Positions 1 through 6,165 of a DNA stretch of 6,165 nt are shown piece after piece. This DNA comes from a virus (taxonomy: Duplodnaviria; Heunggongvirae; Uroviricota; Caudoviricetes): the IMG/VR virus record IMGVR_UViG_2778261704_000023, positions 1-6,165 of that record; one strand, given 5' to 3'. The notes beneath the pieces are model-generated. The model was not told the origin of the DNA. It saw only the letters and a program-made list of their open reading frames with translations, and did not search any database. Every line of letters begins with the position of its first letter. Positions within the stretch are counted from its first letter, which is position 1. A program made the translations under genes and the position numbers.

Positions 1-473
1 GGGGCCAGCATCTGGGCCACACCGCCCAGAATCATGCTGGCTCCAAGTGAAAACAGCATCGTGGTGGCAGAAAAACCACCGGCTGCCAGGGCTGAACCCC
101 ATAACGCCATTGATGCCCCGGCAGTGAAGAAAGAGCCCACGATGGCTGCCGCCCCCAGCACAATCTGCAGTCCACCCTTTCCGGCCCCGGCCAGTCGCGG
201 CACAATGTGGATGACCGTTCCCTCACCCAGCTGTTCGTGAAGACGGGCGTACACCGCCTCCGGTGCCGTGTCCTCACCGCGAATACGTATCTGGTACCAG
301 CCTTCGTTCATCTGACGGCGGAATCCCGGCATCTGCATCGACAGGGCACGGATGGCTTCCGCTGCCGTGTTCACATACAGGCTGAGGCGGCGGCCAAATC
401 GTTGTAAATCCCCGTGAAGGCAGATACGTGCCAGTGGCGGTGACGCCAGGCTGAATGCGTTCGTCGTTGCCAT
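1..473 (-). CDS. I: Lambda-like tail assembly protein I (gpI homolog), N-terminal ~157 codons; the 3' end runs off the window start
   Basis: Not in the supplied ORF track because no stop lies within the window. Manual minus-strand translation from ATG at 473..471 gives MATTNAFSLASPPLARICLHGDLQRFGRRLSLYVNTAAEAIRAL...IHIVPRLAGAGKGGLQIVLGAAAIVGSFFTAGA..., open to position 3. This closely parallels lambda gpI as I recall it (MAATHTLPLASPGMARICLYGDLQRFGRRIDLRV...). GAGAGG lies about 11 nt upstream of the ATG. The start overlaps the 3' end of K by about 100 nt in another frame. Confidence 0.85.
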   Translation of the reverse strand, partial: MATTNAFSLASPPLARICLHGDLQRFGRRLSLYVNTAAEAIRALSMQMPGFRRQMNEGWYQIRIRGEDTAPEAVYARLHEQLGEGTVIHIVPRLAGAGKGGLQIVLGAAAIVGSFFTAGASMALWGSALAAGGFSATTMLFSLGASMILGGVAQMLA

Positions 474-1081
474 TTTTCGGAATACCTCTCCCGTTTACTC
501 AGTTGTTCAGGCAGATGGTGAAGCAGTTCACCGTTGCCGCAGTATATGGCGGCATGATTGGCCACCGATGCGCCAAAGCAGCACAGCAGGATATCGCCAG
601 GCTGTGCGGAAGGCAGGGAAATCCTGTAAAAACCAGTCGCCTCCATATTGTCCAGGTACAGGTTCTGACCGTTGCGCCACCAGTCATCCTCACGCTCAAA
701 ATCCGGCATATCAATTCCCGCCAGATGGTAGGCATCCCGGAACAGCGTGTAACAGTCCGTCACCCCGTGCTCAAAGCGCCGTCCTGTCAGATGTGGCACA
801 CAGCGGAATTTATGAATTTCCCCCCGGCAGACCAGCCACCAGGACAGTGCACTTTTTATCTGCAGCCGCCGGTCGGCCTCGCTCAGCCAGGGCAGACCAC
901 CGGGATGACTGTGGACCAGTGCCACAATCTCCCCCTGCATCTCTGCCCGCAGCCAGTCTTCCGGTGCAATACGAAAATACGCCTCCGGCTCTGCAGAGGT
1001 AAGCGTCGTCTCAGCACCGTCTGGCAGATCCTGAAATTCCTGAGAGAATAGTGGACACCAAATATGGTGGACGCTATCCAT
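371..1081 (-). CDS. K: Tail assembly protein K (gpK-like, MPN/JAMM plus NlpC/P60 domains), C-terminal 208 codons, fused in frame to 28 codons supplied by the left end of the IS; native N-terminus is displaced to 3461..3576
   Basis: ORF-track 236-aa ORF. From residue 29 (SAEPEAYFRIAPEDWL...) it matches lambda gpK as recalled. Contains the JAMM motif HSHPGGLPWLSEAD (HxHx7SxxD) and NlpC/P60-like Cys and His (GVTDCYTLF ... NHAAIY). Codons 1-27 and part of codon 28 (1081 down to 999) lie inside the IS; the ATG at 1081 has no obvious Shine-Dalgarno sequence. Confidence 0.85.
   Translation of the reverse strand: MDSVHHIWCPLFSQEFQDLPDGAETTLTSAEPEAYFRIAPEDWLRAEMQGEIVALVHSHPGGLPWLSEADRRLQIKSALSWWLVCRGEIHKFRCVPHLTGRRFEHGVTDCYTLFRDAYHLAGIDMPDFEREDDWWRNGQNLYLDNMEATGFYRISLPSAQPGDILLCCFGASVANHAAIYCGNGELLHHLPEQLSKRERYSEKWQRRTHSAWRHRHWHVSAFTGIYNDLAAASACM
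991..998. repeat. Target-site duplication, left copy (CTGCAGAG)
   Basis: Identical to 3453..3460 and immediately abuts the IS terminus; the sequence is native gpK coding sequence. Confidence 0.9.
999..1027 (+). repeat. IS66-family left terminal inverted repeat (imperfect)
   Basis: GTAAGCGTCGTCTCAGCACCGTCTGGCAG. Compared by eye with the reverse complement of 3424..3452 (GTAAGCGTGCAGCAAGAACCGTATTGACG): the first 8 nt are identical and about 18 of 29 positions match. Confidence 0.7.
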
Positions 1082-1484
1082 GAAATCATTAACCGCAGTG
1101 CGTAAAAAAAGCCCTAATTATCCCGTTGAGTTCAAAATCAAAATGGTTGAACTCTCGCATCGACCAGAGATCTCCGTAGCGCAACTCGCTCGTGAGCATG
1201 GGATCAACGATAATTTGCTGTTCAAGTGGCGCCAGTACTGGCGCGAAGGAAAACTACGTCCTCCTTCAACAACAGAAAACAACGTGCCTGAGCTGCTCCC
1301 GATAACACTTGATGCCGAAGATGTTGTCCCTACAACCTCCCCCCGGTCACAACCTGTAGCTGCTGCGACACCTGAATCACTCAATATCAGCTGTGAAGTG
1401 ACGTTCCGGCACGGATCACTCCGTCTGAATGGTGCCATCAGCGAAAATATCCTGAACCTGCTGATACGGGAGCTCAAACGTTGA
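1080..1484 (+). CDS. tnpA: IS66-family accessory protein TnpA (orf1)
   Basis: 134-aa ORF at the first position inside the IS, ATG at 1080, 81 nt from the left terminus. Its stop overlaps the tnpB start (TTGA at 1481..1484). The start could instead be the internal Met22 at 1143. Confidence 0.75.
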   Translation: MKSLTAVRKKSPNYPVEFKIKMVELSHRPEISVAQLAREHGINDNLLFKWRQYWREGKLRPPSTTENNVPELLPITLDAEDVVPTTSPRSQPVAAATPESLNISCEVTFRHGSLRLNGAISENILNLLIRELKR

Positions 1485-1828
1485 TCCCATTACCATCAGG
1501 GACAAAGATCTGGCTGGTCGCTGGCATCACCGATATGAGAAACGGCTTCAACGGCCTGGCGGCAAAGGTGCAGACGACGCTGAAAGACGATCCGATGTCA
1601 GGTCACGTTTTTATCTTCCGTGGGCGTAATGGCAGTCAGGTAAAGCTCCTCTGGTCTACCGGCGATGGACTGTGTCTGCTGACCAAACGGCTGGAGCGCG
1701 GCCGCTTCGCCTGGCCGTCAGCCCGGGATGGCAAAGTGTTCCTCACACCGGCACAGCTGGCGATGCTGCTGGAAGGTATCGACTGGCGGCAGCCTAAAAG
1801 ACTGCTTACGTCCCTGACTATGTTGTAA
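1481..1828 (+). CDS. tnpB: IS66-family accessory protein TnpB (orf2, IS66 Orf2-like; unrelated to the IS200/IS605 TnpB nuclease)
   Basis: 115-aa ORF MIPLPSGTKIWLVAGITDMRNGFNGLA..., an N-terminus I recognise from IS66-family TnpB annotations. The start codon is TTG at 1481, overlapping the tnpA stop, which suggests translational coupling. Confidence 0.85.
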   Translation: MIPLPSGTKIWLVAGITDMRNGFNGLAAKVQTTLKDDPMSGHVFIFRGRNGSQVKLLWSTGDGLCLLTKRLERGRFAWPSARDGKVFLTPAQLAMLLEGIDWRQPKRLLTSLTML

Positions 1829-1876
1829 GCCTCTTTATCCTGGTCGACGCTGAATGAGCCTGGTAATATACCCGGT

Positions 1877-3415
1877 ATGAGCAGCTCACTTCCTGACGAT
1901 ATCAATGCACTGAAACGTCTCCTTGCCGAACAGGAGGCGCTGAACCGTGCCCTGCTGGAAAAGCTGAACGAGCGTGAACGCGAAATAGACCATCTGCAGG
2001 CACAGCTGGATAAGCTGCGCCGGATGAACTTCGGCAGCCGCTCCGAAAAAGTCTCCCGTCGTATCGCACAGATGGAAGCTGACCTGAAGGCACTTCAGAA
2101 AGAAAGTGATACCCTTACCGGTCGGGTTGACGACCCGGCCGTGCAGCGCCCGCTGCGTCAAACCCGCACCCGCAAACCGTTCCCCGAATCACTCCCCCGC
2201 GATGAAAAACGGCTGCTGCCGGCAGCATCATGCTGCCCGGAATGTGGAGGCTCACTGAGCTATCTGGGTGAGGATGCCGCCGAACAGCTGGAGTTGATGC
2301 GCAGCGCCTTCCGGGTTATCCGGACTGTACGTGAAAAGCATGCCTGTACTCAGTGCGATGCCATCGTGCAGGCCCCCGCGCCTTCACGGCCCATCGAGCG
2401 GGGTATCGCAGGACCGGGGCTGCTGGCCCGCGTGCTGATCTCAAAGTATGCAGAGCACACCCCGCTGTACCGCCAGTCTGAAATGTACGGCCGCCAGGGC
2501 GTGGAGCTGAGTCGTTCACTGCTGTCGGGCTGGGTGGATGCATGCTGCCGGCTACTGTCACCGCTGGAAGAAGCGCTTCAGGACTATGTGCTGACTGACG
2601 GTAAGCTCCATGCTGATGACACGCCTGTCCCGGTGCTGTTGCCAGGCAATAAGAAAACGAAGACCGGGCGGTTATGGACCTACGTTCGTGACGACCGTAA
2701 CGCCGGGTCAACGCTGGCGCCGGCGGTGTTGTTCGCTTACAGCCCGGACAGAAAAGGCATCCATCCGCAGACCCATCTTGCGGGGTTCAGTGGTGTACTG
2801 CAGGCGGATGCATACGCCGGGTTCAACGAGCTGTACCGGGATGGCCGGATAACGGAAGCCGCCTGTTGGGCTCACGCCCGCCGTAAAATCCACGATGTGC
2901 ACGTTCGCACCCCGTCAGCCCTGACGGAGGAAGCGCTGAAACGGATCGGCGAACTGTACGCCATCGAGGCAGAGATAAGGGGAATGACGGCGGAGCAGCG
3001 CCTTGCCGAACGTCAGTTGAAAACGAAACCGCTGCTGAAATCCCTGGAAAGCTGGCTGCGTGAAAAGATGAAAACCCTGTCGCGACACTCAGAACTGGCG
3101 AAAGCGTTCGCATACGCCCTGAACCAGTGGCCGGCGCTGACGTACTATGCAGATGATGGCTGGGCTGAGGCGGACAATAACATCGCTGAAAATGCGTTGC
3201 GGATGGTCAGTCTGGGCCGCAAAAACTACCTGTTCTTCGGTTCGGATCATGGAGGAGAGCGGGGAGCGCTGCTGTACAGCCTGATCGGGACGTGCAAACT
3301 GAACGGAGTGGAGCCAGAAAGCTACCTCCGCTATGTCCTTGACGTCATAGCCGACTGGCCGATAAACCGGGTCGGCGAACTGCTCCCCTGGCGCGTAGCA
3401 CTGCCGACTGAATAA
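1877..3415 (+). CDS. tnpC: IS66-family transposase TnpC (orf3)
   Basis: 512-aa ORF. N-terminal heptad leucine-rich coiled coil ([36 protein letters not shown]). Cys cluster CCPEC...C..C (codons at 2231..2356), typical of the IS66 transposase zinc-finger region. Acidic residues follow, consistent with a DDE core. Confidence 0.9.
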
Positions 3416-3423
3416 CACATCCC

Positions 3424-3452
3424 CGTCAATACGGTTCTTGCTGCACGCTTAC
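3424..3452 (-). repeat. IS66-family right terminal inverted repeat (imperfect)
   Basis: Reverse complement begins GTAAGCGT, matching the left terminus; it lies 9 nt after the tnpC stop. Confidence 0.7.
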
Positions 3453-3460
3453 CTGCAGAG
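3453..3460. repeat. Target-site duplication, right copy (CTGCAGAG)
   Basis: Identical to 991..998 and immediately abuts the IS terminus ...CGCTTAC at 3452. Confidence 0.9.
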
Positions 3461-3586
3461 ATATTCACACAAGGGATATACCGCTCCCCCTCCGGCGTTC
3501 TCACCACGAAGCCGCACGACTCCGCAGGCGCACACCGCCGGGCATGCGCCAGAATCGCTGATTCAGTCTGTGTCATAAACCGGGAT

Positions 3587-4285
3587 TTACTGCGAAAGTT
3601 TATTAATGGAAAGGAAACCGCCAAAGTTGCCGACATTCCTGCGCAGTTCACACCCGCGCATGCATTTACTGCATCTGTCCTTCCGGATATCCGTGGTGGG
3701 GTTGTCGAACTCATCCGCCACTGCCGGACCGTTATACCCGCATTCATCAGAGCGGTAATCCCACATACAGGTGTTCGCCAGCATGATGCGACCGGGAAAC
3801 AGCGCCCCGTCCGTCTCGGTCGGTGTTGCCAGCACAAACGAGGCTGTCATGGCCGTCAGCTCTGACATCTGCTCCACCACCCAGCGGTCGCTCAGCTCCT
3901 GCTCCGGGTCCGCTTCCGGATTGCCCGCCACAAAATTCACCGCATCCAGAAAACGGGCATACACCCGGCGGCGGACCACCGTGGCCCCCACCAGGCTCTG
4001 CAGGTCCTCCGCCATCCCGGTGACCAGACCAAACAGATTCGACACCGTCAGCGACGGGCGGGCACTGCTGCCCTTCCCGTTCATCTCAAAGCCACTGCCG
4101 TCAATCGGGTATGCCTGGTACTTCCGCCCCTGCCAGGTCACCGGCTCCCCTTTTTCATTCAGCTCATTACAGAAAAAATACCGCTCACCACCCTGGGCCT
4201 TCAGGTCAATTTCCCAGAGCACCACCCGCGGTGACTGCTCTGATTTAACCGACTCGTTCAGGCTTTCCCCGTGAATATGCTGCAT
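3587..4285 (-). CDS. L: Minor tail protein L (gpL homolog; tail-tip protein with a Cys4 Fe-S cluster motif)
   Basis: 232 aa, the same length as lambda gpL, with high similarity along its length as recalled (MQ.I..E.LNE...EQS..VVLWEIDL...GGERYFFCNE.NEKGEPVTWQGR.YQ ... NVGNFGGFLSINKLSQ). The ATG at 4285 overlaps the M stop. Confidence 0.92.
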   Translation of the reverse strand: MQHIHGESLNESVKSEQSPRVVLWEIDLKAQGGERYFFCNELNEKGEPVTWQGRKYQAYPIDGSGFEMNGKGSSARPSLTVSNLFGLVTGMAEDLQSLVGATVVRRRVYARFLDAVNFVAGNPEADPEQELSDRWVVEQMSELTAMTASFVLATPTETDGALFPGRIMLANTCMWDYRSDECGYNGPAVADEFDNPTTDIRKDRCSKCMRGCELRRNVGNFGGFLSINKLSQ

Positions 4286-4626
4286 CAGTTCACCACCTGC
4301 TCAATCGTACAGCTGAAATCACTGTACCGGACGTTATCCGTGACGCTCCACTCCCGGCACACCACCCTCACCGTCCGGTTATGTTTCGGCGGTCGCCACA
4401 AAAAGGCACGGTAACCACCATGCCAGGATAAAAATTCATCCAGCCAGCGCCGGGTTGACTCATCCGTCACCCGGAACACCGCCTGAAACGTCTTCAGTTG
4501 AGGATTCAGTCCTGTGGGGCGACGCTGTTCATAACCGTCACCAAACCGTACCCTCGCCACCGACGGTTTCTCACTCACCTGCATCCCTTCACGCGGGACC
4601 AGATGCAGCGTTTTTATCTCAGCCAC
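4285..4626 (-). CDS. M: Minor tail protein M (gpM homolog)
   Basis: 113 aa, with similarity to lambda gpM (109 aa) as recalled (...VRFGDGY.QR...GLN..LKT ... HGG...FLW.PP ... EQVVN). The start appears to be GTG at 4626..4624, with GGAGG 8 nt upstream; it overlaps the end of H by 8 nt. Confidence 0.88.
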   Translation of the reverse strand: MAEIKTLHLVPREGMQVSEKPSVARVRFGDGYEQRRPTGLNPQLKTFQAVFRVTDESTRRWLDEFLSWHGGYRAFLWRPPKHNRTVRVVCREWSVTDNVRYSDFSCTIEQVVN

Positions 4627-6165
4627 TCAGCATTCCTCCGTCACGTCGCATGGACAACATCACCGCCTGCACCCGCTGGTCAATCAGCTGCACAAGACTG
4701 CCTGCCGCCTCCGGCCCTATCTGGCCATTAGTCCCGTCATTCTGAATGGCGATATGGTAGACCGGGGAATACACCAGGCCCGCACTACCGTTCATACTGC
4801 CCACCGCTCGCACACCCAGCGAGCCATCCGCCGCCCGGGTCAGGGGCATAATGGCTTCAGGACCGGCCTCCCCCATCAGTCCCGCCCCTTTTGCAAAGGC
4901 AAAGTACGTGGGCGTATCCACAATACTGTTGCTGTACGCACTCAGGTTTGCCGAGGTATACACGCCGCCTTTTGCATTGGCCACCGCCCCGCCCAGCCAG
5001 TCACCAATGCTGCCGAGAAATCCTCCCGCACCGGACATACCGTTTGCCGCCGTCTTAATTCCGTTGACAATCGCGGCATTCATAAGAACTTTTGATATTT
5101 CCTGCAGCACTGATGAGGCCCAGCTGCGCCATTCCACTTTATTTCCGTTCAGCATCTCCGTGATGTTATTCACCATCCCTGAGATACCCTCCGTCGCAAG
5201 CTGTGCTGCCTGTGAGGCGTAATCGGACGCATTATCCACCCAGTTACTGAATCCCTCCTGCAGCCCTTTCTGCCAGTCCGCACGCTGCACATCCGATTCG
5301 GCATAAAAGGCTGCCTGGTCCTTAAGGCGTTCGCTCAGATACTGCGCGTTCTGTGCCCGTGCCTGTCTGTAAAAATCCTCACTGATATCCCCGGTCTGAT
5401 ACTGAGACTGAAGGTCCGCATCCTTCTGGCGGAAGCTGTCGCGGATCTGCTGCAACTCCCGCATGCGTTCCCTGGCTCGTTCTCCCTGCCCGTATCCCAG
5501 CAGTTCGGCTTCATTTGATGCACGCGCAGCCACATTATCATTCTTCAGGGTCTCTTCCCGGGATCGCAACTGTTCCCGGATTTTTTGCTGGTCAATCAGG
5601 GCCGCGTTACGCAGCAGTTCCTGCTTCTGCATCTCCGTCAGGGTTTTCAGTTCGCCCTGCGCAGTCTGGTACTTCAGCTTCGCCAGCTCTGTATTCTGAC
5701 CCGCCAGTGCCAGTTGCTCTTTCTGCTGCTTCAGTAGCCGGGAAAAACTGTCTTCCGCTTTTTCCGTCTCTGATTTTCCACCCCGGGATTTAGGTTTGTT
5801 CGCCTCGTTATTACGCCAGGCTTCCAGGGCATTACTGATATAACGCTGTCTCGCCTCCTGATACGAATCCCCCACAAAACCAAGGTCATCCGCCGCATAC
5901 CCCAGCCGGGCACGCTCTTTTTCCTCCCCCTTCAGTCGGGACAGGGCCAGCTCACGCTCTGTTTTTGTCAGGGCACTCTGCTGTTTATCATCCAGGGTGG
6001 CCTGTGGCAGCCGTAACGGTACATTCACCAGCCCCTGACGCTGCTGAAGCAGTTCATTCCCCAGCCCCAGCAGACGGTTGAATTCCGTATGCTGACCGTT
6101 CATAACCAGCATGGACTGGTACACCTTATTCTGCTCTGCCGCCTGCTGACGAATTAACGCCACAC
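4619..6165 (-). CDS. H: Tail tape-measure protein (gpH-like), C-terminal ~515 codons; the 5' end lies beyond the window
   Basis: Long minus-strand ORF immediately upstream of M and open to the window edge; the Met at 6163 is only the first in-window Met, not the true start. Q/E/K/R-rich predicted coiled-coil stretch followed by a Gly-rich hydrophobic segment (GMSGAGGFLGSIGDWLGGAVANAKGG), as expected for a tape-measure protein C-terminal region. Position and order match lambda H-M-L-K-I. Confidence 0.8.
   Translation of the reverse strand, partial: VALIRQQAAEQNKVYQSMLVMNGQHTEFNRLLGLGNELLQQRQGLVNVPLRLPQATLDDKQQSALTKTERELALSRLKGEEKERARLGYAADDLGFVGDSYQEARQRYISNALEAWRNNEANKPKSRGGKSETEKAEDSFSRLLKQQKEQLALAGQNTELAKLKYQTAQGELKTLTEMQKQELLRNAALIDQQKIREQLRSREETLKNDNVAARASNEAELLGYGQGERARERMRELQQIRDSFRQKDADLQSQYQTGDISEDFYRQARAQNAQYLSERLKDQAAFYAESDVQRADWQKGLQEGFSNWVDNASDYASQAAQLATEGISGMVNNITEMLNGNKVEWRSWASSVLQEISKVLMNAAIVNGIKTAANGMSGAGGFLGSIGDWLGGAVANAKGGVYTSANLSAYSNSIVDTPTYFAFAKGAGLMGEAGPEAIMPLTRAADGSLGVRAVGSMNGSAGLVYSPVYHIAIQNDGTNGQIGPEAAGSLVQLIDQRVQAVMLSMRRDGGMLSG

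Follow-up and report, generated by a model that had tools for sequence, protein, structure and literature searches.

An ISEc22 insertion in tail gene K of a lambda-like prophage

Introduction

What divides a tail gene of a lambda-like prophage into two separated pieces, and does the break leave the prophage unable to make particles? The question is raised by a stretch of 6,165 nucleotides from a tailed virus of the Caudoviricetes (IMG/VR record IMGVR_UViG_2778261704_000023, positions 1 to 6,165; hereafter the window), in which ISEc22, an insertion sequence (IS) of the IS66 family, interrupts gene K. A preliminary description of the window took the structure for a recent, possibly still mobile insertion that inactivates a gene essential for tail assembly and leaves the prophage likely defective.

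The account proposed here begins with a full-length ISEc22 that would have transposed into codons 39-42 of K, where a staggered 8-bp cut of the target, once filled in, would give the duplication of CTGCAGAG. The inserted IS parts the first 41 codons of K, with Glu19, from the HSHx7SxxD motif and the whole peptidase domain. Loss of full-length K would be expected to block tail assembly as in lambda, and expression of the downstream genes I and J may be lowered. The insertion would then have been inherited in a group of H2-flagellar Escherichia coli strains that produce Shiga toxin (STEC), in which near-identical K genes of co-resident prophages probably cover the loss in trans. Taken as a whole, this account of transposition into K, inheritance and probable rescue in trans is held with high confidence. 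Its structural core is observed, from the identity, integrity and exact ends of the element to the duplicated target, the empty site and the divided K.

The element and its ends

The element occupies 2454 bp on the plus strand (999-3452), starting with GTAAGCGT at 999 and finishing with ACGCTTAC at 3452. End-to-end comparison reveals terminal inverted repeats on that strand at 999-1024 (GTAAGCGT...) and 3427-3452 (...ACGCTTAC). The repeats are imperfect: all 8 terminal bases are inverted-identical, as are 17 of the first 26 positions overall. IS66-family ends reportedly begin 5'-GTAA, as do those of this element.

In a search of 5426 complete E. coli genomes, the 2454 bp has matches of 100% identity and 100% coverage at many loci, with neighbours that include cybC, gpJ, an S49 peptidase gene and irmA, among others. 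RefSeq labels these identical copies, without exception, as 'IS66-like element ISEc22 family'. Of these genomes, 2192 contain a copy with coverage of at least 80%, and those with any match have a median of 3 matching places. ISEc22 is tabulated as a 2454-bp member of the IS66 family (PMC5001619). The name applied here relies on the RefSeq/PGAP labels together with this published length. Because labelled RefSeq copies are 100% identical to it and the length is the published one, the window element is, as judged by its sequence, ISEc22 in its currently widespread form.

Three genes, all open and all on the plus strand, fill the element. The first, tnpA (1080-1484), encodes a helix-turn-helix accessory protein of 134 aa that matches NCBIfam IS66_ISRel24_TnpA at 82.8 bits (cutoff 74) and Pfam HTH_Tnp_1. 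The second, tnpB (1481-1828), encodes an IS66 Orf2-type accessory protein of 115 aa that matches NCBIfam IS66_TnpB at 119.9 bits and Pfam TnpB_IS66 at 131 bits; its coordinates agree with the RefSeq annotation of the closest complete genome, strain 2015C-3163 (L001). The two genes overlap in a TTGA at 1481-1484 that supplies both the tnpB TTG start and the tnpA TGA stop, an arrangement that suggests translational coupling. The third, tnpC (1877-3415), encodes a DDE transposase of 512 aa (NCBIfam transpos_IS66, 466.6 bits) with all 4 Pfam IS66 modules, LZ_Tnp_IS66, zf-IS66, DDE_Tnp_IS66 and DDE_Tnp_IS66_C, at near full model length; the DDE_Tnp_IS66 match spans model positions 1-283 of 284. The IS66 models are matched full length by all three products, each above the curated NCBIfam cutoff. 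The preliminary assignment to the IS66 family, with three intact open reading frames (ORFs), is thus borne out by the ORF reading, NCBIfam and Pfam. This copy of ISEc22 appears to be functional and can probably still move.

The insertion site

The element is bordered by two copies of CTGCAGAG, at 991-998 on the left and 3453-3460 on the right, both read directly; on the plus strand of the window the 8-mer occurs at these two places only. The chance that a given 8-mer recurs exactly against the other IS end is about 4^-8 (1.5e-5). An 8-bp duplication and the tnpABC layout are reported for the IS66 family (PMC6778807), and the family's 8-bp duplication is found here on both sides of the element. 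The left copy of CTGCAGAG sits within a perfect 10-bp palindrome, CTCTGCAGAG, at 989-998; in other K alleles this position is taken by small inverted repeats (CTCCGG-CTCA-CCGGAG and GGGAAA-ATATC-TTTCCC).

Removal of 999-3460 from the window leaves a 3703-bp sequence in which K is one uninterrupted ORF of 247 aa. A relative that lacks the IS, O111:H11 strain 88-19539 (L002), is co-linear with this sequence over exactly 3703 bp (the window minus 2462) at 99.2% identity. At the junction it has ...CCGGCTCTGCAGAGATATTCAC..., where CTGCAGAG occurs once, and its intact K is identical to the reconstructed K at 247 of 247 aa. The flanks of the element are therefore a true target-site duplication, since the two 8-mers are identical and the empty site of 88-19539 holds one copy.

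Eleven distinct ISEc22 sites in E. coli genomes, fetched as copies from lambdoid tail regions, have identical termini and perfect 8-bp duplications at all of them; one of them is the site of the window itself, shared with 2015C-3163. The element coordinates and perfect duplication given in the preliminary description hold exactly on direct reading of the sequence. The single-copy empty site that it anticipated in an IS-free relative is present in 88-19539, with no different junction. The possibility it raised that the true termini might lie elsewhere finds no counterpart among the eleven sites, which all end at the same two bases.

A structure of this kind might also be produced by homologous recombination between two ISEc22 copies, or by a chimeric assembly, instead of simple transposition. 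Rearranged or chimeric copies do exist: in metagenome and virome contigs, 9 of 35 full ISEc22 copies with both flanks have no matching 8-bp flanks (L076, L079, L100, L106, L113, L125, L142, L149 and L159), which is consistent with recombination between copies or chimeric assembly. One metagenome or virome copy is 2464 bp long. In the window, one and the same 8-mer lies on both flanks, joining the two sides yields an ORF identical to an intact K and co-linear with the empty site over 3703 bp, and the same junctions recur in 7 independently assembled complete genomes. The empty-site comparison refutes recombination or assembly as the origin of the window structure, and the probability left to either is negligible.

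Consequences for gene K

Transposition into K leaves two pieces of the gene on the minus strand. The 3' fragment, identified by its ORF and Pfam matches, lies at 371-998, includes the left copy of the duplication and encodes residues 40-247 and the stop; it holds the rest of the JAB domain, with its HxHx7SxxD motif, and the NlpC/P60 domain. RefSeq names it in 2015C-3163 'C40 family peptidase, incomplete, missing N-terminus'. The 5' fragment lies, by ORF reading, at 3453-3576 and holds codons 1-41. Its reading frame runs into the IS as far as a stop at 3331, giving a truncated product of 82 aa, and RefSeq names it in the same genome 'Mov34/MPN/PAD-1 family protein, incomplete'. The duplication covers K codons 39-42. 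Because the IS separates codons 1-41 from the rest, no full-length K can come from this prophage copy: the window copy of K cannot make the full-length 247-aa protein.

The restored K has Pfam matches to Prok-JAB at residues 3-105 and NLPC_P60 at 111-224. Its metal-binding motif HSHx7SxxD, HSHPGGLPWLSEAD, begins at residue 68, downstream of the break, and Glu19, within the 5' fragment, is a candidate for the JAMM-motif glutamate. The reconstructed ORF confirms the domain order of a lambda gpK-type tail-tip assembly protein, a JAB/MPN domain followed by an NlpC/P60 peptidase, and phage records call the homologue of this gene K. The claim that both flanks are native K coding sequence is therefore upheld by the IS-less ORF of 247 aa and its two domains, Prok-JAB and NlpC/P60. 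Lambda requires K to assemble its tail. Recent structural work found no gpK in the virion and treats the protein as non-structural (PMC10721106).

Several points weigh against the proposed account. In the classical listing, lambda gpK has 199 residues (PMC7291167), and a start for this form would lie downstream of the insertion point, so that the need for the N-terminal 48 residues rests on domain conservation. An in-frame chimeric ORF of 236 aa (371-1081, minus strand), with 28 IS-encoded residues from an ATG at 1081 followed by K residues 40-247, could in principle give a product with some activity. No 100% identical match to the window was found among the complete genomes searched. Lastly, the mobility of the window's ISEc22 copy is read from sequence features, namely its intact ORFs and ends and the identical copies at many loci.

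The first two of these points suggest that K might not be inactivated at all, with a shorter K, made from the chimera or from an internal start, sufficient for tails and the IS at most polar. Two published or annotated features are in keeping with a shorter product, the 199-residue description of lambda gpK and the L005 locus of strain 64.1, in which an analogous chimeric ORF (1488-2210) is annotated by RefSeq as an intact 'C40 family peptidase' (WP_374704724.1); that label is probably an annotation artefact, and the window's own chimera is probably an incidental reading frame. Against a shorter K, the Prok-JAB match from residue 3 makes the N-terminal 48 residues part of a conserved domain, and the candidate JAMM glutamate Glu19 would be lost. 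The lambda start position, Met49, is Ile in this K allele, and the next Met is residue 59. In 2015C-3163, which is 99.9% identical, RefSeq marks both K pieces as pseudogene fragments. A promoter scan of window positions 300-3700 found no sigma-70-like promoter from which a shorter K might be expressed, and an outward promoter driving the K remnant is accordingly unsupported. Survival of K function in a shorter form is improbable.

The 247-aa form is taken as the real K gene, on sequence grounds, because this allele has Ile where lambda K starts and the domain is matched from residue 3 onwards. RefSeq K homologues, together with the JAB match from residue 3, also favour a 247-aa protein. Terminator-like hairpins in 300-3700 occur at about the shuffled expectation, and an Rfam scan of the whole window found no family at gathering score.

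Consequences for the prophage

The preliminary description inferred that the prophage is likely defective for the production of infective particles. In cis, this is reasonable, as K is split within its JAB domain; at the level of the cell it needs qualification, as rescue in trans is plausible and a carrier has an intact K. The prophage is thus best described as defective in cis and possibly rescued in trans. Rescue is plausible because the genome of a carrier, EC20017429, has in another prophage an intact K that is identical at 245 of 247 aa. In a further carrier, Z1323MEC0002, a full-length match to the empty-site query lies elsewhere in the genome. Morphogenesis defects of lambdoid prophages are complemented among near-identical genes in O157 Sakai, as found experimentally (PMC2669165). 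The label 'defective' therefore needs care for prophages in poly-lysogenic strains, where a 99% identical K is available in trans.

K may not be the only lesion of the prophage, because the portal gene of the same prophage in 2015C-3163 (NZ_CP027219.1, 8591-46165) is annotated as frameshifted. The prophage of that strain adjoins a truncated ydfJ, and nleG7, nleD and an espS pseudogene lie beyond its tail fibres.

This setting raises the question of prophage domestication, in which the insertion would be useful to the host by stopping particle production and locking a cargo of type III effectors in the chromosome. The position of the prophage at ydfJ in the closest complete genome, with nleG7, the espS pseudogene and nleD beside the tail genes, would fit such a role, as would the fact that 7 complete genomes retain the insertion, the five that were typed falling into three serogroups, and the recurrence of ISEc22 insertions in the lambdoid tail genes K, L and H and between I and J. 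A neutral lesion that persists in a clonal lineage would look the same, however, and the apparent enrichment in tail genes is an ascertainment effect, the tail genes having been the search target. Complementation in trans would, moreover, undo the locking of the cargo. Domestication is on balance unlikely, and the inherited insertion with probable rescue in trans is preferred.

Distribution of the insertion

Seven complete genomes share this K insertion, each matching the full 6165-bp window at 99.5-99.9% identity. Three carriers are O103:H2 (2015C-3163, RM13322 and 20151001), one is O153:H2 (2011C-4315) and one is O118:H2 (EC20017429); no serotype was found for the carriers Z1323MEC0002 and 2003-3014. 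The nearest complete genome differs from the window by 6 single-nucleotide polymorphisms, all within 1-527. The RefSeq annotation of several genomes already records this very structure.

Two signs point to recency. Many copies at other loci match the IS at 100% identity, and the K halves encode a protein identical to the intact allele, which indicates no decay since insertion. The insertion is thus molecularly young, with an identical IS and an undecayed K, and to that extent the earlier reading of it as recent stands; it is not private to a strain, with 7 complete genomes carrying it. Because these genomes share it, the insertion is not a private event: it has been passed down in a lineage, or it sits on a prophage common to the strains. 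K::ISEc22 is useful for marking the lineage of a group of H2 STEC strains.

Neighbouring tail genes

The genes around K, all on the minus strand, are those of a lambdoid tail operon. Of tail assembly gene I only the 5' part is present, cut off by the left end of the window (1-374, open translation from 374); its GTG start at 374 overlaps the K stop, and RefSeq names the same ORF in 2015C-3163 'tail assembly protein'. On the other side of K lie an intact gene L (minor tail protein L; 3587-4285, Pfam Phage_tail_L, 309.5 bits) and an intact gene M (minor tail protein; 4285-4626, Pfam Phage_min_tail, 100.4 bits). The 3' part of the tape-measure gene H (4619-6165; Pfam Phage_HK97_TLTM and Tape_meas_lam_C, RefSeq annotation of 2015C-3163) runs off the right end. 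The position of K fits the order H-M-L-K-I-J, with H, M and L assigned by Pfam and the order matched by the RefSeq annotation of 2015C-3163 and 88-19539. ISEc22 in the window is antisense to this operon.

Other insertions and target preference

Tail regions were searched with the K::IS structure in both orientations of the IS. An initial impression that all tail-region ISEc22 copies are antisense proved to be a search artefact, as only same-strand pieces had been joined; the query with the inverted IS found sense insertions. Beyond CTGCAGAG in the window, K carries ISEc22 at duplications of GGAGATAT (L005, 2112-2119, +4 bp from the window site), GGATATAT (L009 and L010, at the same 8-bp position as GGAGATAT with the IS inverted), ATATCTTT (L003, 3872-3879, +23 bp from the window site), ATATATCC and, in its 3' part, GAGCAAAC. 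A duplication of ACTTTGGC lies at the 3' end of L, and TCTGAATC is duplicated between I and J in O157:H7 strain PV15-279 (L004), where an identical ISEc22 occupies 1501-3954. The duplications GGTTCAGG, CAAAAGTT and TGAGAAAG lie in H.

Further copies illustrate the range of contexts in which the element or its relatives occur. In contrast to the intact copy in the window, a copy at the 3' end of L, a short way upstream of K, in NZ_CP117053.1 (L011, 1615-3154) is decayed; it measures 2455 bp, and its transposase is annotated as frameshifted. Matches to the Stx2a-converting phage genomes AP012536.1 and AP012537.1 (Stx2a_1447 and Stx2a_WGPS2) suggest a similar three-piece pattern, with IS66-family transposases by tail assembly genes. 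An exact right end of ISEc22 occurs in a Streptococcus sanguinis assembly (NZ_JAHZOW010000016.1, 1112 bp; L021), most likely through contamination of the assembly with enterobacterial DNA.

Within the 5', JAB-coding part of lambdoid K, a stretch of 31 bp (the equivalent of window positions 991-1021) has been struck by ISEc22 in four independent events, two of which share their 8-bp target but differ in the orientation of the IS. A post hoc calculation for three random points in a 744-bp gene puts the probability of equally tight clustering at about 0.005.

Target flanks were collected from one-genome-per-species contigs, metagenomes and viral contigs (L014-L210, with the E. coli loci), giving 126 left and 55 right distinct flanks after clustering. 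Within the duplication, A or T occupies position 3 in 74% of left flanks (n=126) and 80% of right flanks (n=55), and position 6 in 82% and 76% of the same sets. Position 4 is T in 71/126 left and 29/55 right flanks, and position 5 is A in 57/126 and 31/55. Outside the duplication, A or T is found 16 bp beyond it in 72% of left flanks and in 51/55 right flanks (93%, p about 8e-11), and 19 bp beyond it in 106/126 left flanks (84%, p about 7e-14) and 71% of right flanks. The result is a weakly palindromic duplication consensus of approximately G-N-W-T-A-W-N-C, with additional A/T positions 16 and 19 bp outside.

A position weight matrix was built from 118 left and 46 right flanks, none of them from the tail-directed searches. 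All 10 of the 10 held-out tail sites score between the 78th and 99.7th local percentile, with the window's own site at the 85.6th percentile (1048th of 7294). The target preference of ISEc22 is real but weak. The matrix alone was considered as the cause of the K cluster and was set aside, because the window site ranks only at the 85.6th percentile; the cluster is left unexplained by the matrix alone.

ISEc22, and perhaps IS66 transposases generally, may choose targets by a signature of about 46 bp, which may make the 5' part of lambdoid K genes a hot spot with the window insertion as one instance; this suggestion is tentative and falls a little short of an even chance. No description of an IS66-family target preference was found in the literature searched, a set whose scope did not extend to the main IS66 papers, and a literature search for an IS66 'CwAH' motif gave no match. 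Within this analysis, possible novelty is confined to the target-site signature and the hot spot in K. If true, the signature would offer an initial clue to the way IS66-family transposases interact with target DNA and would account for the repeated hits in the same few bases of K, a matter of modest importance.

Comparison with known systems

Set beside known systems, the insertion is a known element showing known behaviour, and the damage to the prophage is ordinary and already annotated. Insertions of IS elements in prophage morphogenesis genes of enterohaemorrhagic E. coli and STEC are well documented, and the finding as given matters very little. The window copy has the 2454 bp, the tnpA-tnpB-tnpC layout and 100% nucleotide identity of many RefSeq copies of ISEc22, from which no difference was detected.

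Among its relatives, IS66 and IS679, prototypes of the family known from Agrobacterium Ti plasmids and from plasmid pB171 of enteropathogenic E. coli, likewise have three ORFs, with TnpC as the DDE transposase, an 8-bp duplication and imperfect terminal inverted repeats (PMC6778807). IS66 differs in its length of about 2.55 kb, against 2454 bp here, and in its diverged sequence, and it is a different member of the family. ISEc8, an IS66-family element common in O157:H7, shares the same architecture and is also found in lambdoid tail regions, beside I (L008); it is about 88% identical to the window ISEc22 over the matched region and is a separate element in RefSeq.

An example of a similar fate among prophages is Sp4 of O157 Sakai, in which an IS disrupts nu1. 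There, too, a morphogenesis or packaging gene is lost among many near-identical prophages and the loss is complementable in trans (PMC2669165). Sp4 differs from the window in the gene struck, nu1 and not K, in the IS involved, and in its O157 background as opposed to that of H2 non-O157 STEC.

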